A stretch of DNA of 64,000 nt from Gemmatimonadota bacterium (GCA_020344015.1 CP070812.1:4261489-4325488), one strand, 5' to 3'. Shown: positions 16,535 through 26,678, counted from the first letter of the stretch. The notes: generated by a model not told the origin, from the sequence alone. Made by a program: numbers and translations.

Positions 16535-17155
16535 CTAGTGCCCTGCGCCGTCGTTCTGACGCAACGTCGAGAATTGCTTGACTCCCGTAGTGGTGGATTG
16601 ACCGTCAGCTAACAGCGCGTCGACGTACCAGAAGTAGATACGATCGGGTAGCAGAGTTTCCGGCGTTGGAACAGCCACAGTCGTATCCGACGTCGTAGTG
16701 CTCCATACCACCTGACCATCTGCTTCGGTCAGGGTCAACCGGTAAGAGGCATCGGGCGCTGCTGAGCGCCACACAAACACGACCTCATCGCCCAGCAGAG
16801 CGGTGCCGTCGACGGGAGCAACGACCTGGAATCTCGGAGTTGTGGCCAGCTGCGCTTCAGTGTCGGTACCTCTCAGGACCGGCCTCGAATCCGGTCCGGA
16901 TATCTTAGGTCCGAGGAAAAGGATGGCAGCGATAGCCGCCGCAGCCGTCACTGGACCTGCCACGTACCACGGACTGAAACGCTTCAGCTCCTTTAGATCC
17001 CGAGACACCTCGATGACTTCGCGTCGGCACTCATCGCATGTGGCCAGATGAGCTTCGACTCGGGCTGTCTCCTCGTTGCTGATAGCGCCCTCCAGATAAC
17101 CGGCGACGATATCGCTGCTCAGGTGTTCGGCCAAAGACCCATCCTCTGTCATCAC
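16535..17155 (-). CDS. zinc-finger anti-sigma factor with TM helix and ~120-aa extracytoplasmic domain
   Basis: HLATCDECRREV is the ZAS H-x3-C-x2-C motif. TM segment is WYVAGPVTAAAAIAAILFLG. The gene is immediately downstream of the ECF sigma gene. Confidence 0.7.
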   Translation of the reverse strand: MMTEDGSLAEHLSSDIVAGYLEGAISNEETARVEAHLATCDECRREVIEVSRDLKELKRFSPWYVAGPVTAAAAIAAILFLGPKISGPDSRPVLRGTDTEAQLATTPRFQVVAPVDGTALLGDEVVFVWRSAAPDASYRLTLTEADGQVVWSTTTSDTTVAVPTPETLLPDRIYFWYVDALLADGQSTTTGVKQFSTLRQNDGAGH

Positions 17156-17258
17156 AGTCTCAGCGCTACCATGAACAACGTGCCTCCATTCTTATTGGAC
17201 GGACAACCACACCTCGTCTTGCAGCGGTCCGTTTCCTACGTCCGGCACACAGGCAGAA

Positions 17259-17921
17259 TCAAGGCGATGCATCCTCGACGCCTCGCTGCATTAGGTCCTG
17301 CCGGAGCGACCTGCAGATCAAGTCAAGACGACGATAGACACTAAAGACGGACGGAAATCGCATTAATCTGGCGATCTCACGAACCGAGATTTCGTCGTGG
17401 AATCTCAACTTCAAGAGAAGCTGATCCCGATGATCGAGGCGCCCGATCGCCGACTGTAAAGCGTCTCGGAGCTCAGCTTCACGTAACTCGACCTCCGGAT
17501 TGCCGCGGGAGGGATCGGGGACAGCAGACAGGTCAATCTCCACGGCCACCAGATCAGCCAAGCGTCTTCGGGTCGCCCGCGCTTCAAGGGCGGCACGACC
17601 TGACTGTGCCCTATTGCGGCCGTATACGCGCCGCCCGTAGTCCAGGCAGAGGCGCCGGGCTACAACTGCCAGCCAAGTAGAAAACTTGCCGCGTCCCGCG
17701 GTGGCATAGGCGCGCAATCGCCTAAAATCGTCCCGGCGAAGCTCCTCCAGCATGTACGCGTAGCGGTCCATGGCGCTGTCGTAGTCCCGGCTGTAGGCGT
17801 GCGCCGCATGCAGGAGCAGGCGGTTGTATTTGGCGGTGAACGCCGCCCAGTTCGTTTCAACAGAGGGAGGGTCGGACGAATCGAGCAGGCGGGATAACTC
17901 GGGAGGAAGCGATGTTGCCAT
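17259..17921 (-). CDS. ECF-type sigma-70 family RNA polymerase sigma factor
   Basis: Region 2 is KFSTWLAVVARRLCLDY. Region 4 HTH is LLLKLRFHDEISVREIARLM. Start taken at MATSLPPELS (aa 43 of the track ORF, which begins with TTG). Confidence 0.8.
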   Translation of the reverse strand: MATSLPPELSRLLDSSDPPSVETNWAAFTAKYNRLLLHAAHAYSRDYDSAMDRYAYMLEELRRDDFRRLRAYATAGRGKFSTWLAVVARRLCLDYGRRVYGRNRAQSGRAALEARATRRRLADLVAVEIDLSAVPDPSRGNPEVELREAELRDALQSAIGRLDHRDQLLLKLRFHDEISVREIARLMRFPSVFSVYRRLDLICRSLRQDLMQRGVEDASP

Positions 17922-18181
17922 CCGTGCCTCAGCGTCGTGACCGACGTGCTTGAAGTTCGGACGCAGCCCAGCAGTATCGCACGAGTCCAACCTAGAGTTT
18001 AACACTACTGCTCCCCACAGGACTTGGCCAGACTGCGTGGCTAGCAACTAGTGGCGCTGACGATACCGGCTGCTCCTTGGGCACGATGGTTGCGCCTGCT
18101 TCGATCGTTGCTCACTCTATGTCGTTGGGACATCAAGACTACATAGTGGTTCGGTCAAGATTCCAGGAGTAGAGCTCGGTC

Positions 18182-19165
18182 ATGCACACACCGGCCTCGT
18201 ATTCTCGACGGGAGTTCCTCGGAAGGTCCCTCTCCTGTGTCTGCCATCTCGCTCTGATGGCCCTGCCCTTCAATCCGTCTGTACGTCGGCTCTGGTCCTC
18301 CCGGGCACGCGGCCAGGTCGTCGCAGAGGAACCGTTCGCCCGACTGGAGGAGATCGGCGAAGGCCTGTTCGCCCTGATATCGACCCCGCTGGGCGGCGAC
18401 TACACCACGGTCTCCAACGGCGGGATCATCGCCGGTAGCGACGGCGTCCTGGCGGTCGAGGGCTTCATGAGCCCCGATGGCGCGCTCTGGCTAGCAGAAA
18501 AGACCAGGGAGCTCACGGGGCGCTGGCCCACCCACGCCGTCATCACACACTACCATTCGGACCACAGCAGGGGCGTTGACGGCTACCTCACCGAGGCCGA
18601 CGGACCTGACGTTCGGGCCACTGCTGTGACGAGCGAGCTCGTGCTCACGCGACGCAGAGAGCCGGCCGATGACAAAACCCAGAGGGTGTGGGCCGACGTC
18701 ACTCTACTGGACGAGAACGAGGCGAGTCTCATCGACCTCGGTGGACGGACGGTTCGAGTCGTGCCACGCAAAGGGCACACGCCCAGCGACGTCACGATCG
18801 AGCTGGCCGAAGAGAGCATCGTGTGGTGCGGCGACCTCGTTTGGAATGGGATGTTCCCAAACTACGTCGATGCCATACCCTCTCAATTGTCCGAGGCGGT
18901 CCGGGCTATCGGGCGCGGCGCCTGGTCGGCGTACGTCCCCGGCCACGGCCCGCTGGCCGATGCGGCGGAGCTGGAGAAGTACGTGGCGGTGCTGGACGAC
19001 ATCGAGGCCGCGGCGCGCCGTGCCTTCGAGCGGGGGGCCAGCGCGGAGGACGCGGGCGCCGCTTACGAGATCCCGGCCGAGCTCGGCGAGTGGACCCTCT
19101 TCAATCCGCAGTACTTCGAGCGCGCCATCGGGGCCTGGATGCGTGAACTGCGCGCGTCCGGATGA
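18182..19165 (+). CDS. MBL-fold metallo-hydrolase, Tat-exported
   Basis: Twin-arginine motif SRREFLGRS. HxHxDH motif ITHYHSDHSRG, with later His/Asp ligands. Confidence 0.85.
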   Translation: MHTPASYSRREFLGRSLSCVCHLALMALPFNPSVRRLWSSRARGQVVAEEPFARLEEIGEGLFALISTPLGGDYTTVSNGGIIAGSDGVLAVEGFMSPDGALWLAEKTRELTGRWPTHAVITHYHSDHSRGVDGYLTEADGPDVRATAVTSELVLTRRREPADDKTQRVWADVTLLDENEASLIDLGGRTVRVVPRKGHTPSDVTIELAEESIVWCGDLVWNGMFPNYVDAIPSQLSEAVRAIGRGAWSAYVPGHGPLADAAELEKYVAVLDDIEAAARRAFERGASAEDAGAAYEIPAELGEWTLFNPQYFERAIGAWMRELRASG

Positions 19166-19272: not shown

Positions 19273-21261
19273 GTGCGGAACGAGAGAATCTGCATCTCGA
19301 AGCTCGCCGCGGGGCTGATCTTCCTCACGGCGTCGGCGCTGGCCCTCCCCGGGAGCGGCCAGGCGCAAGCGACGTCGTATCTGGATTTCGATCAGCTCAC
19401 GCGCCAGCTCCGATCTCTGGTGAATAGCTCCGACATGGCCCGCATGAACTCGGTGGGGACATCGATCGAGGGCCGGGAGATCTGGGTCGTGGAGATCGGG
19501 AATCCATCAGGAAAGCCGTTGGAGGAACGCCCCGCCGTCCTGGTGATCGGAAACCTCGAGGGCGACCACGTGGTCGGCAGCGCCCTGGCGCTGGAGACCA
19601 TCCGCTACCTCCTGGACGGAGCCGAGGACAACGCCGAAATCCAGACGATCCTGGAGGAACAGACAGTCTACGTCTTCCCGCGGGTGAACCCCGACGGTGC
19701 GGAAGCGATGTTCGCGTCGGTCAAGTGGGAGAGGTCGAGGAACGCCCGCCCCTACGACGATGACAACGACGGCCGTATCGACGAGGACGGGCCCGAAGAC
19801 CTGAACGGGGACGGACTCATCACCGTCATGCGCGTCCCCAATCCTTCCGGCGACTACATGATCGACACGGTCGACGCTCGCCTTATGAAGAAGGCGGATC
19901 CCACAAAGGGCGAGCAGGGAGAGTACACGCTCTACTGGGAGGGCACCGACTCGGACGGCGACGGGTTCTTGAACGAGGACGGGCCCGGCGGCGTCGATCT
20001 CAACCGCAACTTCCAGCACGCCTATCCCTACTGGCAGCGGGACGCGGGTCCTCACATGGTCAGCGAGCCGGAGAGCCGCGCGCTGATGGATTTCGTGATC
20101 GCCCACCGCAACATCGGCGCGATCCTGGCATTCGGTCGCACAGACAATCTGGTTACGCCTCCCGACTCGCGAGGCAACGTCGCCGACGCGAGCATCCTGG
20201 ACCTGCCATCGTTCGCGGACGCTTCAAACGCGGAAATCTCCGAGGTCGGTGTATTCGGAGCTCAGCAACCTTCCGGCTTCGGTTTCTTCTTCTTCCGCGG
20301 CGGCAGAGGATCCGGCTTCCGCGGCGCACAACCGGGACGCGACAACGATCCGAACGCCGGCCGCAGGCCGGCCACCACGTTCAATCAGGCGGACCTCGAG
20401 TACTTCAATGCCGCCTCCGAAGCATACAAGTCCATCACAGGGATCGAGTCGGTCGGAATCCACCGGACGCCCGAAGGCGCCTTCTTCCAGTACGGCTACT
20501 TCCAGTTCGGCGTCCCCTCCTTCAGCACCCCGGGGTGGGGGCTTCCCTCGGCAGAGCCAGAAGAGCCTGGCGAGGAAACTCCGGGCGCCGCTGAGGAGCG
20601 CCCCGAAGGCGCCGCCCGTGAGAGGCCTCCTGGGGGCGCCAGACCGGCGGGCGCAGGCGCGAGAGCCGGCGGCGGGAGAGCCATGCCTCAGGGAGGACGT
20701 CCCGGCGGCGGTGGCGTTGCGGCCGGGGCGGATGCTCGCGTTCTCTCCGCCCTCGACGCCGCCGGGATCGACGCCTTCGTGGACTGGACCGCCTACACTC
20801 ACCCGACACTGGGTGAGGTCGAGATCGGCGGGTTCCGACCCTACGCCGCGACTAATCCCCCCGCCGAGGATCTTGCGGGGCTGGGGCGTGACCACGGCGA
20901 GTTCGTCGCCCGCCTGGCCCGTATGCTCCCGCGGGTGACGATCGTCGAGACCGAGGTGACGGCGCACGGCGGTGGCATCTACACCGTGGCGGTCGAGATC
21001 GAGAACTCGGGATACTTCCCGACATCGCTCCAACACGGGGTCGTGTCCCGTTCGGTCGGGCCGACGACCGTGCAGATCCACGTTCCACCGGAAGATGTGA
21101 TCACTGGCGACGCGAAGACGAGCTCGATTCGACAACTGAACGGTTCGCACAACCGAGAGCGTTTCGAGTGGGTGATTCGGGGACGCGATGGTGCGAGGGT
21201 AGAGATCACTGCGCTCGCCCAAAAGGGCGGGACCGACAGTGCCACCGTGACGCTGAGGTGA
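19273..21261 (+). CDS. M14-family carboxypeptidase-like protein, secreted, with divergent metal site and low-complexity insert
   Basis: GTG start follows AAGGAGA. Signal peptide is KLAAGLIFLTASALALPGSGQA. It aligns along its length with the downstream M14 gene (VYVFPRVNPDGAE vs FYIVPTVNPDGRD). EGDH replaces the HGNE zinc motif. There is a Gly/Pro/Arg-rich ~120-aa insert. Confidence 0.8.
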   Translation: MRNERICISKLAAGLIFLTASALALPGSGQAQATSYLDFDQLTRQLRSLVNSSDMARMNSVGTSIEGREIWVVEIGNPSGKPLEERPAVLVIGNLEGDHVVGSALALETIRYLLDGAEDNAEIQTILEEQTVYVFPRVNPDGAEAMFASVKWERSRNARPYDDDNDGRIDEDGPEDLNGDGLITVMRVPNPSGDYMIDTVDARLMKKADPTKGEQGEYTLYWEGTDSDGDGFLNEDGPGGVDLNRNFQHAYPYWQRDAGPHMVSEPESRALMDFVIAHRNIGAILAFGRTDNLVTPPDSRGNVADASILDLPSFADASNAEISEVGVFGAQQPSGFGFFFFRGGRGSGFRGAQPGRDNDPNAGRRPATTFNQADLEYFNAASEAYKSITGIESVGIHRTPEGAFFQYGYFQFGVPSFSTPGWGLPSAEPEEPGEETPGAAEERPEGAARERPPGGARPAGAGARAGGGRAMPQGGRPGGGGVAAGADARVLSALDAAGIDAFVDWTAYTHPTLGEVEIGGFRPYAATNPPAEDLAGLGRDHGEFVARLARMLPRVTIVETEVTAHGGGIYTVAVEIENSGYFPTSLQHGVVSRSVGPTTVQIHVPPEDVITGDAKTSSIRQLNGSHNRERFEWVIRGRDGARVEITALAQKGGTDSATVTLR

Positions 21262-23057
21262 TGGAAATGAACTACGTAAAAGAGAACAGAATGGTGACGA
21301 GGCTAGGCGCGGCCTTCCTGGCCATCGCCATCATCCTGGCCGGCGCGCCCGACCTGAGCGCCCAGCAGCGCGGTGGTTCCGACCCGGAGCACAGGTTGCC
21401 ACTCACCTGGGATCGCTGGCTCGATCACGCGGGCATGGCTGAGCGGATGAGGCAGATGGCCGACACGTGGCCCGAGTTCCTGACCCTCACGTCACTGGGC
21501 AAGAGCTACGGCGGCCGCGACCTGTGGATGATGACCATCAACAACCCCAGCACCGGCCCCGAGATGAACAAGGCGGCCATGTACATCGAGGCCAACGTGC
21601 ACGGGAACGAGATCCAGGGCGGTGAGATCTGCCTCTATACGATCTGGTACCTGATGGAGAACTACGGCCGCATAGAAGAGATCACGCGCCTGGTCGACGA
21701 GCGGGTCTTCTACATCGTTCCGACCGTCAATCCCGACGGCCGCGATTACTTCATGCACGGCACGGGCTCCGGCTCGCGCACCGGGCACGTACCCGTCGAC
21801 AGCGACGGAGACGGCCTCTTCGATGAGGATGGACCCGACGATCTGAACGGGAGCGGCATGATCGAGCAGATCCGCAAGTACGTCCCCGGTGAAGGTACCC
21901 ACCGCATCAGTCACGACGATCCGAGGATCATGGAGACCGTCCCCTCGGGCGAGACCGGTGACTGGATCCTGCTGGGGTCCGAGGGAATCGACAACGACGG
22001 CGACGGGCGCGTCAACGAGGACCCGGTCGGCGGCTACGACCCGAACCGCAACTACGGCGCGGGCTGGCAGCCCAACTACATCCAGGGCGGCTCGATGAAT
22101 TACCCGTTCGAGCTGCCGGAATCGCGTGCCACCAACGACTTCTGGATGACGCATCCCAACATCGCCGGCGCCCAGTCGTACCACAATTCGGGCGGGATGA
22201 TCCTACGCGGCCCGGGGACCGCCTGGCACGGCACCTACCCCAGAGAGGACATCCGCGTCTACGACGAGCTGGGCGAAAACGGCGAGCGGATCCTTCCTTA
22301 CTACAACTACCTTATCATCTGGCAGGGGCTCTATACGGTGCACGGGGGCTCCATCGACTGGACGAATGATGGGCTCGGCGCCGTCTCCTTCTCCAACGAG
22401 CTCTGGAGCGGCAGCCTGTACTTCGGCAGCGATCTGCTACGAGAACAACAGGAGGACCCGGACTCGCCGATCTCGGGCCAGAAGTCGCGGTTCTTCTTCG
22501 ATGACTTCGTCGAGTTCGGCGACAACTACGTCGAGTGGACGCCATTCGATCATCCACAGTTCGGAGCGGTAGAGCTGGGCGGGTGGAAGAAGTACTTCGG
22601 TCGGATAAACCCACGCTTCACGAGCATGGAGCAGTTCCACCGCAACATGGCCTTCACACTGTATCACGCCGATCAGATGCCGCTCATGTCTATCGGTGAA
22701 ACCACGGTAGAGAACGTGGGCGGGAACGTGTACAGGGTGCGGGTGGACATCAGGAACGAACGGCTGATCCCGACCATCACCGTGCGGGCGCGGCAGAACA
22801 ACGTCGTGCGCCCCGATCTCCTCACTGTTGACGGTAACGTCGAGGTCATCGCCGCGGGCTGGGTGCCCAACAAGCACCGGCCCGGCCCCACCGACCGAAT
22901 CGACCAGGACGAGCTCGACCGCATCATCATCCGCAGCGGCCACCCCGGCCGCACGACCCGGACCATCGAGTACCTGGTCCGCGGCTCCGGCTCGATGACG
23001 GTCACCTACTCTGCAGTCAAGGGCGGCACGGCTTCCACAACCGTGCGGCTCCGCTGA
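21261..23057 (+). CDS. M14-family zinc carboxypeptidase, secreted
   Basis: Signal peptide is MVTRLGAAFLAIAIILAGAPDLSAQ. The HGNE zinc motif lies in IEANVHGNEIQGGE. VNPDGRDY and SYHNSGG supply the third His. ATG overlaps the upstream stop by 1 nt. Confidence 0.85.
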   Translation: MEMNYVKENRMVTRLGAAFLAIAIILAGAPDLSAQQRGGSDPEHRLPLTWDRWLDHAGMAERMRQMADTWPEFLTLTSLGKSYGGRDLWMMTINNPSTGPEMNKAAMYIEANVHGNEIQGGEICLYTIWYLMENYGRIEEITRLVDERVFYIVPTVNPDGRDYFMHGTGSGSRTGHVPVDSDGDGLFDEDGPDDLNGSGMIEQIRKYVPGEGTHRISHDDPRIMETVPSGETGDWILLGSEGIDNDGDGRVNEDPVGGYDPNRNYGAGWQPNYIQGGSMNYPFELPESRATNDFWMTHPNIAGAQSYHNSGGMILRGPGTAWHGTYPREDIRVYDELGENGERILPYYNYLIIWQGLYTVHGGSIDWTNDGLGAVSFSNELWSGSLYFGSDLLREQQEDPDSPISGQKSRFFFDDFVEFGDNYVEWTPFDHPQFGAVELGGWKKYFGRINPRFTSMEQFHRNMAFTLYHADQMPLMSIGETTVENVGGNVYRVRVDIRNERLIPTITVRARQNNVVRPDLLTVDGNVEVIAAGWVPNKHRPGPTDRIDQDELDRIIIRSGHPGRTTRTIEYLVRGSGSMTVTYSAVKGGTASTTVRLR

Positions 23058-23109: not shown

Positions 23110-23511
23110 TTAACGAGATTCCGGTGACGACGCGCTCTCGGTCTGACCGAACTTGCATTCCGGCACACCCCGGGTCAGACCGTAATCCGTGATGACCGGC
23201 CCGACCTCCGCCGGAAATTCGCCGTCCCACCACCCATCGTAACGCGCGCAGATCGCTCCTTCTGCTTGCGCCGTTCCGATCCAGCCGCTCTCGTCCGCGT
23301 AGAGGATCGTCGTCGTTACTCTCGCCGATACACTGTGCTCCGGCAGTTCGAGCTCCGTCGTGTAGGTCCCGTTATCCGCGAAGTAGTACTCCTGCGCTGT
23401 CCCAACCGCCCACAGGCTCCTTTTCACCACGGCGCTCGAGACTTGTTCCTGCCCGGACGAGCAACCGACCACTAGGGTCAGCGCCGTCAGTCCTATCAAC
23501 AGCACCTTCAC
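23110..23511 (-). CDS. hypothetical lipoprotein
   Basis: Signal plus lipobox LTLVVGCSSG. Length is 133 aa with no family recognised. It is the first gene of the AT-richer islet. Confidence 0.5.
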   Translation of the reverse strand: MKVLLIGLTALTLVVGCSSGQEQVSSAVVKRSLWAVGTAQEYYFADNGTYTTELELPEHSVSARVTTTILYADESGWIGTAQAEGAICARYDGWWDGEFPAEVGPVITDYGLTRGVPECKFGQTESASSPESR

Positions 23512-23924
23512 CGTTCACCTCGCCGGGTTGGGATGACCTGGAACCCCTGGTCCTCGAAATCTTGATCGAGGGCCAACGCTTCCTGTATGCCCTCTGCCTC
23601 CATCAGCACGAAGCTGACGGAGTCCACCAAGCTCAACCCGCGGCGGTCGGTGCTGAACAGTCGTTCAAGCGCGCGGCGGTGTAGGCCTTCGTCGACCCAG
23701 TGTACCCCGAGGAGAGGAACGAGTCGGTTCTCGAAGTCCCGAACGGCCGCGAGCCCGAATCGATGCTGCAGCAGCGCGCACGTCTCGAGCAAGACATAGT
23801 TGGTGCTCACCAGGCGCCGGTGCGCCTTTAGTAGTCCGCTGAACGCGTCCACCACGATGTCGTGATCCTCTTCTGTGCGGACGAGGAGAGCGTAGAGCGC
23901 CGACGTATCGACGAACACGCTCAT
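23508..23924 (-). CDS. vapC: PIN-domain toxin VapC
   Basis: MSVFVDTSALYALL...LLET...D... shows the PIN acidic residues. A 4-nt overlap with the upstream RHH antitoxin suggests operon coupling. Confidence 0.85.
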   Translation of the reverse strand: MSVFVDTSALYALLVRTEEDHDIVVDAFSGLLKAHRRLVSTNYVLLETCALLQHRFGLAAVRDFENRLVPLLGVHWVDEGLHRRALERLFSTDRRGLSLVDSVSFVLMEAEGIQEALALDQDFEDQGFQVIPTRRGER

Positions 23925-24184
23925 CCTTCGTACGCCTCAGACAGATGCTCATCGTGGTCTTCCGCGACCCGAGATCGACCTTCCGGGTCGGCGTACTTCC
24001 CCACCACCGCCATAGCCTCGCGCACCAGCCCGTCTCGGCCAAGCTCCAGCTGCTCACCGGCCAACCGCTCCGCCACGCAGCGCCGCACGGCCTCCGACAT
24101 CGAGATCCCTACGCGATTCGCCCAAGCCTTCAAGCGCCGGTGCATCTCATCGGGCAATTGGATCTGAGTACGTACCATCTTCAT
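23921..24184 (-). CDS. vapB: ribbon-helix-helix antitoxin VapB
   Basis: MKMVRTQIQLPDEMHRRLKAWANRVGISMSEAVRRCV is an RHH/CopG fold. Start moved from the track M1 to the internal MKM. The track M1 would include the promoter palindrome. Confidence 0.7.
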   Translation of the reverse strand: MKMVRTQIQLPDEMHRRLKAWANRVGISMSEAVRRCVAERLAGEQLELGRDGLVREAMAVVGKYADPEGRSRVAEDHDEHLSEAYEG

Positions 24185-24187
24185 GCC

Positions 24188-24210
24188 ACCATTATATGAT
24201 ATCATAATGT
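24188..24210 (-). promoter_or_regulatory. vapBC promoter/operator: TATAAT -10 box overlapping a 12-bp palindrome
   Basis: On the minus strand, TATGATATCATA is a perfect palindrome at 24195-24206. It is followed by TATAAT (24196..24191) about 7 nt before the MKM start. RHH antitoxins typically bind such palindromes. Confidence 0.4.
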
Positions 24211-24968: not shown

Positions 24969-26678
24969 TCACCCGCAGCGGTCGCACCCGGCGCACCGCC
25001 GGTGCGGTAACACTTCCCCGAAGTAGCGGAGCAGGTAGCGACGCCGGCACCCGCCCTGGTACGCGTACGTCTCCATCCGCTTGAGCTTGCGCATCTCCAG
25101 CGCACGCCGTGCGGCGACCCGCTCCCAGTCGACGGGCAATGCGTCGGGATCCAGCTTCAGGTCGGCGGGCACGTAGCCCGACCTGAGACCGTCATCGCGC
25201 CAGCCGATGAGGCCGGCCGCCTGAAGGGCATCGAGGGCGTCACGGGCGGCGCCGAAGTCGCCACCGGTCCAGCGGGCGACTTCGCGACGCGAGATACGCA
25301 GGTGGCGGCGCTCGGCCTGAGCCGAGATCCGGGCCAGGCCTTCGAGCACGGGAATAACGGCGAGGCGTTCTTCCGAGCCGTTGTCGTACTCGAGCAACTC
25401 ACGCACCTGAGCCGAGCTGGCGATCCATCTGATGGTACAGCTGGAGCGGTTCGCGGTGTCTTCGACGGCGCCTGCATCGCGGAGGATGCGTAGCGCCGAG
25501 TAGATCTCGCCCTCGCCCTTGGCGTCTTTGACGCGAGCCGCAAACTGGGCGGGCGTGACGGGACCGCCGGCGGCGCGCACCGCATCGCGAAGCGCGCTGA
25601 ACGTCGCACGCACAATCTTCCGTGGAGGATAGGATGAGCGGATGAAGAACTCGTGGGTGAAGCGATCGCGGTAACTATGCAAGAGGGTGCACTCGGCGGG
25701 CTCGCCGTCGCGGCCGGCGCGGCCCGCCTCCTGATAGTACGCCTCGAGCGATCCCGGCATCTGGAAGTGGATCACCCGGCGAACGTTGTCCTTATCGATC
25801 CCCATGCCGAAAGCGTTGGTGGCGACGACGACCGGCAGGTTCCCGACGGTCCACTCCTCCTGCACCCGGGCGCGGCGCTCGCGCGGCAGCCCGGCATGGT
25901 AGGCGGCGGCATCGATTCCTTCACCTCTCAGTAGTTCGCTCGTAGCCTCGACCACTTTGCGCGTCGATGCGTAGACCACCGCCGTCTCGTCGCCGTTCCC
26001 GAGGGTCGAGATCAGCAGCCCAGCCTTCTCGCTCAGCTTCTCTTCGCGGCGCACGGTCCAGCGCAGGTTGGGACGATCGAAGCCGCGGACGATGACGCGG
26101 GGCTCGCGGAGCCCCAATTCCTCGACGATATCGTCCCGCACCTCGGGCGTCGCCGTGGCGGTCAGCGCCATGAGGCGTGGTCGGCCGATCTCCCGCCATA
26201 CGTCCCGCAGCAGTAGATAGCTGGGCCGGAAATCGTGACCCCACTGAGAAACGCAATGCGCTTCATCGATGGCGACCAGTCCGATTTCCGTCGCGCCCAG
26301 CGCGCGCCGGAAGACGGGACTTCCGAACCGCTCCGGCGCCACGTAGAGCATATCGAGCTCGCCGGCGGCCGCCCGGGCGAGGCGCTCCTCGATCTCGGCG
26401 CTCGACAGCGTGCTGTTGACCAGGGCGGCCCGGATCCCACGGCGTTCCAAGGCGTTCACCTGATCGAGCATTAGGGCGATGAGCGGCGAGACGACGAGGG
26501 TGAGGCCTGGGAGGACGAGGGCGGGGACCTGGAAGCAGAGGGATTTGCCGCCGCCGGTGGGCATGACGATCAACGTGTCGCGACCGCGCAGGATCGACAG
26601 GATCGCCTCACGCTGACCGGGCCGGAAATCGCCGTACCCGAAGTACCGCCGGAGAGCGGAACGTGCCTCTGACCACAT
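24969..26678 (-). CDS. recQ: ATP-dependent DNA helicase RecQ
   Basis: FRPGQREAI, MPTGGGKSLCFQ, DEAHCVSQWGHDFRP, the helicase C-terminal domain, the zinc-binding RQC region and the HRDC-like C-terminus are all present. Length is 569 aa. Confidence 0.95.
   Translation of the reverse strand: MWSEARSALRRYFGYGDFRPGQREAILSILRGRDTLIVMPTGGGKSLCFQVPALVLPGLTLVVSPLIALMLDQVNALERRGIRAALVNSTLSSAEIEERLARAAAGELDMLYVAPERFGSPVFRRALGATEIGLVAIDEAHCVSQWGHDFRPSYLLLRDVWREIGRPRLMALTATATPEVRDDIVEELGLREPRVIVRGFDRPNLRWTVRREEKLSEKAGLLISTLGNGDETAVVYASTRKVVEATSELLRGEGIDAAAYHAGLPRERRARVQEEWTVGNLPVVVATNAFGMGIDKDNVRRVIHFQMPGSLEAYYQEAGRAGRDGEPAECTLLHSYRDRFTHEFFIRSSYPPRKIVRATFSALRDAVRAAGGPVTPAQFAARVKDAKGEGEIYSALRILRDAGAVEDTANRSSCTIRWIASSAQVRELLEYDNGSEERLAVIPVLEGLARISAQAERRHLRISRREVARWTGGDFGAARDALDALQAAGLIGWRDDGLRSGYVPADLKLDPDALPVDWERVAARRALEMRKLKRMETYAYQGGCRRRYLLRYFGEVLPHRRCAGCDRCG

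Follow-up and report, generated by a model that had tools for sequence, protein, structure and literature searches.

Two adjacent genes for M14-family carboxypeptidase homologs lie between positions 19,273 and 23,057 of a 64,000-nucleotide (nt) stretch of Gemmatimonadota DNA (GCA_020344015.1, CP070812.1:4261489-4325488), referred to below as the window; all positions are counted from its first letter. The product of the upstream gene is designated P1, and that of the downstream gene P2. A preliminary description of the same DNA had proposed two same-strand paralogs, with an active site intact in P2 and swapped or lost in P1.

The gene pair and its active sites

The genes and their terminal features, all on the forward strand, are as follows.

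19273..21261, +: P1 gene, predicted exported M14 pseudo-carboxypeptidase (662 amino acids, aa), an open reading frame (ORF) with a GTG start
19273..19371, +: predicted P1 signal peptide, recognized in the sequence by a hydrophobic core and ...AQA/TS
20770..21258, +: P1 C-terminal domain (~160 aa; a hairpin, a helix and a beta-sandwich), common to P2, from the alignment to the P2 C-terminus and the model
21258..23057, +: P2 gene, predicted exported canonical M14 zinc carboxypeptidase (598 aa counted from ATG), from the ORF, the junction sequence and PF00246

The P1 start is most plausibly GTG 19273, with AAGGAG six bases 5' of it. P2 begins at either GTG 21258 or ATG 21261, and the P1 stop codon is TGA 21259-21261, for an overlap of 4 or 1 nt. 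Both ORFs match Peptidase_M14 (PF00246) in a Pfam profile search (8.7e-32 for P1, 1.6e-39 for P2) and qualify for family M14 by this match and the funnelin alpha/beta fold. They are 33% identical across the N-terminal 264 aa, which make up the catalytic domain, and 30% identical across the C-terminal 180 aa, which hold a domain of ~160-170 aa. By sequence comparison they are paralogs, as had been suggested. The nearest relatives are from Gemmatimonadota metagenome-assembled genomes, with top identities of 87% for P1 and 94% for P2; no specific NCBIfam model was found for either. Within the first 60 aa of P1 the maximum Kyte-Doolittle window is 2.17, and the structural model of P1 has a helix at residues 9-23. 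The P2 N-terminus, read from the sequence, is likewise hydrophobic and signal-peptide-like. Strands run across residues 555-660 in the modeled P1 C-terminal domain, and no Pfam family was above threshold for the C-terminal domain of either protein.

The catalytic positions of the two proteins map to the following segments.

21594..21620, +: P2 NVHGNEIQG, zinc ligands H114 and E117, kept in 121/121 orthologs and matched to the HxxE motif in carboxypeptidase T and CPD
22038..22055, +: P2 DPNRNY, substrate anchor N262/R263, kept in 121/121 and aligned to NRNY of carboxypeptidase T
22173..22196, +: P2 QSYHNSGG, third zinc ligand H308, kept in 121/121 and aligned to His204 of carboxypeptidase T
22329..22409, +: P2 LYTVHGGSIDW ... 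SFSNELWS, Tyr248-type Y358 and general base E380, invariant and aligned to Y255/E277 of carboxypeptidase T
19552..19578, +: P1 NLEGDHVVG, with E96 replacing His69 and H99 replacing Glu72, aligned to HGDE/HGNE of CPM, CPD, CPN and P2
19996..20013, +: P1 DLNRNF, retained Asn144/Arg145-type carboxylate anchor N244/R245, with Arg in 121/121 close orthologs and 79/79 species-level sequences
20125..20148, +: P1 LAFGRTDN, G288 at the His196 position, aligned to P2 H308 in SYHNSGG, with Gly in 121/121 and 78/79
20518..20541, +: P1 SFSTPGWG, P420 at the position of the general base Glu270, aligned to P2 E380 (FSNELW vs FSTPGW)

P2 has all three zinc ligands of the His69/Glu72/His196 type, together with the counterparts of Glu270, Tyr248, Arg127, Asn144 and Arg145 (E380, Y358, R173, N262 and R263). 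A profile alignment of its orthologs matched carboxypeptidase T residues H69, E72, N146/R147, H204, Y255 and E277, which agrees with the HGNE motif and third His (SYHNSGG) first noted from the sequence. The full set (H114, E117, R173, N262/R263, H308, Y358, E380) is invariant among 121 orthologs. In P2-type ORFs from species-level genomes, each position is canonical in 66-68 of 68, the remainder being gaps or N-masked residues, and the canonical set is complete in all P2-type sequences apart from those truncated at the catalytic positions. On these residues, P2 would be the catalytic member of the pair: its zinc site, general base and carboxylate anchor are all in place.

P1 lacks the zinc ligands and the Glu270-type general base, and retains the Asn144/Arg145-type anchor. 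In both single-sequence and profile searches of the PDB, its NLEGDHVVG lines up residue by residue with NMHGDETVG of carboxypeptidase M and with the corresponding motif in CPD-II and CPN; it also aligns with NVHGNEIQG of P2. The EGDH noticed earlier is therefore in the same columns as the HxxE ligands of P2 and the known enzymes, and the Gly in place of the third His is in the column of P2 H308. In the P1 model, G288 comes after strand 281-287 and P420 after strand 416-419, where the counterparts of His196 and Glu270 should be. The loss at P420 had been missed in the preliminary description. Residues at the four catalytic positions, with their distribution in 121 close orthologs of P1, are listed here.

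His69 position: P2 H114; P1 E96; close orthologs E 91, S 15, A 8, T 5, Q 2
Glu72 position: P2 E117; P1 H99; close orthologs H 117
His196 position: P2 H308; P1 G288; close orthologs G 121
Glu270 position: P2 E380; P1 P420; close orthologs P 63, Q 35, L 16, A 4, E 2, T 1

Alignment, the check that might have overturned this assignment, found no canonical His/Glu/His/Glu set in any P1-type sequence: none of the 121 close orthologs, none of 79 from species-level genomes, and none of 150 cluster representatives. These last are the best representatives of 50%-identity clusters drawn from 1.8 billion proteins, and the alignment of the most distant is less certain. Glu is found at the Glu270 position in only 2/121 and 1/79 P1-type sequences, and the Tyr248 position is variable. 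No conserved replacement residue was seen beside the lost positions; the residue after the Gly, for example, is H, L, E or R. The residue before the anchor Arg is Asn or Asp, with one Gly exception among the 79 species-level sequences.

Since two of the four positions drift and the Gly is invariant, the zinc site and general base of P1 appear to be gone rather than rearranged, and we infer a loss of activity, which would make P1 a catalytically dead paralog. Of the two possibilities raised at the outset, "swapped or lost," the exchange of Glu and His is real, and loss describes it better. A functional ligand swap was considered and rejected, the Glu at the first ligand position not being conserved (E/S/A/T/Q). 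Because the Asn/Arg of NRNF is kept, a pocket for the C-terminal carboxylate of a substrate may persist.

In public records, P1-type proteins are labeled "M14 family zinc carboxypeptidase" or "murein tripeptide amidase MpaA," the latter being the Joint Genome Institute (JGI) label on several P1 orthologs (P0001, P0002, P0076, P0091). With the zinc ligands and general base missing, the MpaA label is very likely wrong for these. Such mislabeling inflates the predicted peptidase repertoires of soil and sediment metagenomes.

Tandem order, gene fusions and selection

The distribution of the pair was surveyed by a scan for P1-specific patterns in a single genome of each GTDB species, which yielded 80 loci. 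These belong to the Gemmatimonadota, the Acidobacteriota (Aminicenantes and Thermoanaerobaculia among them) and the Bacteroidota (Bacteroidales, Rhodothermales and others). At 72/81 loci the ORF immediately after the P1-type one is of the P2 type and lies on the same strand; the other nine are without an intact P2-type ORF, mainly owing to a contig end or a fragmented gene. The side-by-side, same-strand arrangement of an active and an inactive paralog is thus conserved across lineages, and relatives with no more than ~33-39% identity to the fusion query have it too. The genes overlap by 4 nt at 38 of 67 P1/P2 junctions, and nearly all the other junctions are within 13 nt. No third gene is conserved with the pair, the next most common flanking cluster being present at only 11/82 loci.

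In the Phycisphaerae (Planctomycetes), the two halves are found as single proteins. There are six full-length dead/live fusions of 1220-1265 aa, from independent assemblies and 59-72% identical to the first (P0271); one was called as a single gene on a Phycisphaeraceae contig of 495 kb. In each, a dead N-terminal half (DGTR, LGRHD, FATTMW) is joined to a canonical C-terminal half (HANE, FHNMGG, FTNELW). A signal peptide is predicted at the N-terminus only, and the linker is without a hydrophobic stretch, so these are unlikely to be read-through artifacts. The linkers showed no conserved cleavage motif.

Other architectures were encountered in the family. P0449 (1272 aa) has an M28/M20-type aminopeptidase region (PA and TFR-dimer domains) fused upstream of an M14 domain of the loop-bearing clade; a pattern search found no HxxE-type motif in that domain. 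This is another multi-peptidase arrangement. Two pseudo-type proteins from Phycisphaerales, P0384 and P0404 (913 aa), have an extra N-terminal ~600 aa ahead of the M14 domain.

At the level of selection, the ratio of nonsynonymous to synonymous substitution (dN/dS) against four orthologs is 0.16-0.22 for P1 and 0.09-0.16 for P2. The P1 alignment has 118 invariant columns, and P2 is the more conserved partner at 59 of 59 loci. P1 is under purifying selection; it is functional, and not decaying.

Acidic loops, inserts and neighboring genes

Each protein contains two acidic loops, at the places where they had originally been noticed, and P1 has two further inserts.

19756..19815, +: P1 acidic loop 1 (residues 162-181), DDDNDGRIDEDGPEDLNGDG; invariant D162, D164, N165, D166, G167, E171, D172, D176, G179, D180
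19948..19992, +: P1 acidic loop 2 (residues 226-240), DSDGDGFLNEDGPGG; invariant D226, D228, D230, G231, E235, D236, G239, G240
21798..21857, +: P2 acidic loop 1 (residues 180-199), DSDGDGLFDEDGPDDLNGSG; invariant D180, D182, D184, G185, D188, E189, D190, G191, D194, L195, N196, G199
21990..22034, +: P2 acidic loop 2 (residues 244-258), DNDGDGRVNEDPVGG; invariant D244, D246, D248, G249, N252, E253, D254, G257, G258
20164..20316, +: P1 insert A, absent from P2, from comparison of region lengths and the model
20545..20730, +: P1 insert B, a low-complexity linker rich in G/A/P/E/R (G17, A14, P10, E9, R7 of 62 residues)

In P1 and P2 alike, D-x-[DN]-x-D-G-x-x-[DN]-E-D loops bracket an ~85-aa insert between the Arg127 region and NRN. 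They are far beyond chance, because in both family alignments the columns of their Asp, Gly and Glu residues do not vary, and they must predate the P1/P2 duplication, being present in both paralogs and in distant relatives. In all four, a conserved D-x-[DN]-x-[DN]-G is followed further on by an acidic ligand, a pattern that fits the DxDxDG class of calcium loops, and they are probably calcium-binding. The likeness to EF-hand and dockerin sites pointed out in the preliminary description holds in part. There is a sub-threshold resemblance to the EF-hand loop (PF00036, PF13405, PF13202), with a best E of 0.029 and 14.5 bits against a cutoff of 25, over loop positions 9-20 only; dockerin type I (PF00404) gave E 0.29 and 11.8 bits against a cutoff of 22.9. 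The loops thus belong to neither family. In the P1 model, which is of low confidence here, the loop region is coil without a flanking helix-loop-helix. A Pfam search of the loop insert gave nothing above threshold, and a PDB search with the ~90-aa insert gave a chance match only (E 0.96).

The single ~120-aa disordered insert first ascribed to P1 is better described as two separate ones; the extra sequence itself is there, with a predicted local distance difference test (pLDDT) score below 50 for both in the P1 model. The region of insert A, after the His196-equivalent strand, has 109 aa in P1 vs 49 aa in P2 (~60 extra), and its length is conserved, at 98-116 aa in 120 sequences. It holds the Gly/Phe-rich stretch GFGFFFFRGGRGSGFRG, followed by a conserved motif, RGAQPGRDNDP..GRRPATT, whose R350, G351, A352 and N358 are invariant in the P1 alignment. 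The stretch itself, rich in Gly, Phe and Arg (window positions 20260-20316, P1 residues ~330-348), has a similar G/F-rich consensus in orthologs; it recalls low-complexity segments of the FG or RGG type, and is unusual for an exported bacterial protein. Insert B, which comes after the Glu270-equivalent strand, adds ~39 residues; the length of this region ranges from 24 to 94 aa across orthologs.

The following genes adjoin the pair in the window.

16535..17155, -: anti-sigma factor with a zf-HC2 zinc finger
17259..18047, -: sigma-70 region-2 protein adjoining it, just under the Pfam cutoff
18182..19165, +: metallo-beta-lactamase-fold protein with a twin-arginine-like N-terminus (SRREFLGRS), ending ~100 nt before the P1 start
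23110..23511, -: ORF of 133 aa, convergent on the P2 end and matching no Pfam family, whose N-terminus (LTLVVGCSSG) resembles that of a lipoprotein
23508..24205, -: PIN toxin with ribbon-helix-helix (RHH) antitoxin, a type II module downstream of P2
24267..24847, -: PemK/MazF toxin with MazE antitoxin, also type II, back to back with the PIN/RHH module
24969..26678, -: RecQ-type helicase with DEAD, Helicase_C and RecQ_Zn_bind domains

The upstream genes at 16535-18047 (-) look like an extracytoplasmic function (ECF) sigma/anti-sigma pair, which is not conserved at other loci. The metallo-beta-lactamase-fold gene is missing at the other locus that was examined closely, and so probably does not belong with P1 and P2. 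Given the lack of a conserved third gene, neither it nor the ECF sigma/anti-sigma and toxin-antitoxin genes are considered part of the module.

Possible functions and known systems

The pairing of an active with an inactive M14 protein proposed in the preliminary description is borne out by the residue loss, the conserved tandem order, the overlap and the fusions. What the two proteins do together is less certain. We consider it rather probable that they make up a two-gene, exported, heteromeric M14 carboxypeptidase in which P1 is a pseudoenzyme subunit. P1 and P2 would be translationally coupled, exported through Sec, and assembled ~1:1, with P1, itself non-catalytic, serving P2 as a scaffold or holding the substrate for it. 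P1 would have kept the M14 fold, the acidic loops, the Asn/Arg anchor and the C-terminal beta-sandwich, lost the zinc site and general base, and gained two inserts. A physical heteromer is proposed mainly because of the gene fusions and coupled translation; we infer the association of P1 with P2, the binding of calcium and the contribution of P1 from sequence. A broader version, to which we give slightly less than an even chance, is that an exported M14 family in at least four phyla, with at least 150 pseudo-type clusters (50% identity), works only as a live plus dead heteromer, the dead subunit keeping its C-terminus-binding pocket and, with the calcium-loop insert, setting the choice of substrate or holding the substrate for the live subunit.

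Several points weigh against a heteromer of this kind. The partners in an operon or a fusion need not form a stable heterodimer, and the AlphaFold model of P2, built on a shallow alignment of 53 orthologs (74-94% identical to P2), had a pLDDT of 52.6, was unusable, and was set aside. The genes flanking the pair across loci give no clue to a substrate. As for P1 being entirely without a metal site, H99 is ~97% conserved among close orthologs and an acidic residue is common at the first ligand position across the wider family; E96 and H99 may have a residual metal-binding or structural role.

P1 might instead be an independent non-catalytic binding protein, such as a receptor for peptides or their C-termini or an envelope-binding protein, that is merely produced along with P2, the two not being in a complex. 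The known M14 pseudopeptidases AEBP1 and CPXM1/2 do act as binding proteins rather than as enzyme subunits (PMC11266112), the Asn144/Arg145-type anchor is retained by P1 in all close orthologs, and P1 evolves faster than P2 at every one of the 59 loci compared. Strict adjacency across phyla, stop/start overlap and recurrent fusion are however better explained by joint action at a fixed stoichiometry, and we consider an independent binder unlikely. A regulatory role, with P1 as an intermolecular prodomain-like inhibitor or a folding chaperone that keeps P2 inactive or assists its maturation following export, seems less likely again. It would suit the 1:1 coupled expression and the lack of an M14A-type N-terminal prodomain in P2, whose mature start is close to the catalytic domain, and the disordered P1 inserts could occupy the cleft; but no part of the sequence resembles known M14 prodomains or inhibitors, and a permanently fused inhibitor would need some mechanism of release, for which the linkers offer no conserved cleavage motif.

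Two other readings concern P1 by itself. It could be an active hydrolase, by way of a rearranged metal site (Glu96/His99 and another residue) or a different mechanism. Glu and His are both able to ligate zinc, and Helicobacter Csd4, which was also among the fold matches, is an M14 protein with a variant ligand set; the conservation of His99, and the frequency of an acidic first position even in distant relatives, could be read in the same way. Against this, the first position is S/A/T/Q in ~25% of close orthologs, the third ligand is Gly in all of them, the general-base position is P/Q/L/A and the Tyr248 position variable, and no adjoining residue is conserved as a replacement, all of which makes catalysis by P1 quite improbable. 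That P1 is a decaying duplicate without function might be suspected from its lost catalytic residues and lower conservation than P2, but its ORFs are intact in ~80 species-level genomes across phyla, it is retained in the fusions, and the dN/dS values and invariant columns given above effectively refute this reading, which was rejected.

The preferred reading, a heteromer of live and dead subunits, can be compared with several known systems. The DxDxDG pattern of the P1 and P2 loops is common to the calcium loops of EF-hands, integrin FG-GAP repeats and thrombospondin type 3 repeats, but the EF-hand profile matches of the P1 and P2 loops are below every Pfam threshold. Solved structures of carboxypeptidase T (Thermoactinomyces vulgaris) and of M14A/M14B enzymes (CPA, CPB, CPM, CPN, CPD) are without the ~85-aa two-loop insert; unlike these enzymes, P1 and P2 have a C-terminal domain that matches no Pfam family, and P1 is without the zinc site and Glu270. 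Among eukaryotes, the M14 pseudopeptidases (AEBP1/ACLP, CPXM1, CPXM2, CPD domain III and yeast Ecm14) have lost at least one of H69, E72, H196, R145 and E270, and act by binding (PMC11266112). P1 is like them in being an M14 domain with its catalytic residues lost, but they have other architectures (discoidin, prodomain), several have lost the R145 that P1 keeps, and none has an adjacent gene for an active partner.

A 2024 review of metallopeptidase pseudoenzymes describes M14 pseudopeptidases from eukaryotes only, all free-standing and none bacterial, and M16B as the only bacterial example of a two-gene active/inactive system (PMC11266112). No description of a bacterial M14 dead/live pair was found in the open-access literature, which is not proof of novelty. 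If the proposal is correct, P1 would represent the first bacterial M14 pseudopeptidase family, and the pair a new quaternary design for a classic enzyme family across the Gemmatimonadota, Acidobacteriota, Bacteroidota and Planctomycetes. Pseudoenzymes that partner active paralogs are well documented for kinases and M16 peptidases, and P1/P2 would be a directly testable case of the reuse of a dead active site.

The closest parallel is with the bacterial M16B peptidases and the alpha/beta subunits of mitochondrial processing peptidase (MPP), in which an active paralog and one without a metal site form a heterodimer, are encoded in an operon, and have fused single-chain versions in related lineages (PMC11266112). 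P1 and P2 share this logic: a two-paralog operon, one member dead, with fused versions elsewhere. The differences are of fold and activity, an M16 clamshell vs an M14 funnelin and endopeptidases vs carboxypeptidases, and the M14 heterodimer is proposed from the genes; it would be the M14 counterpart of the M16B/MPP alpha-beta principle.

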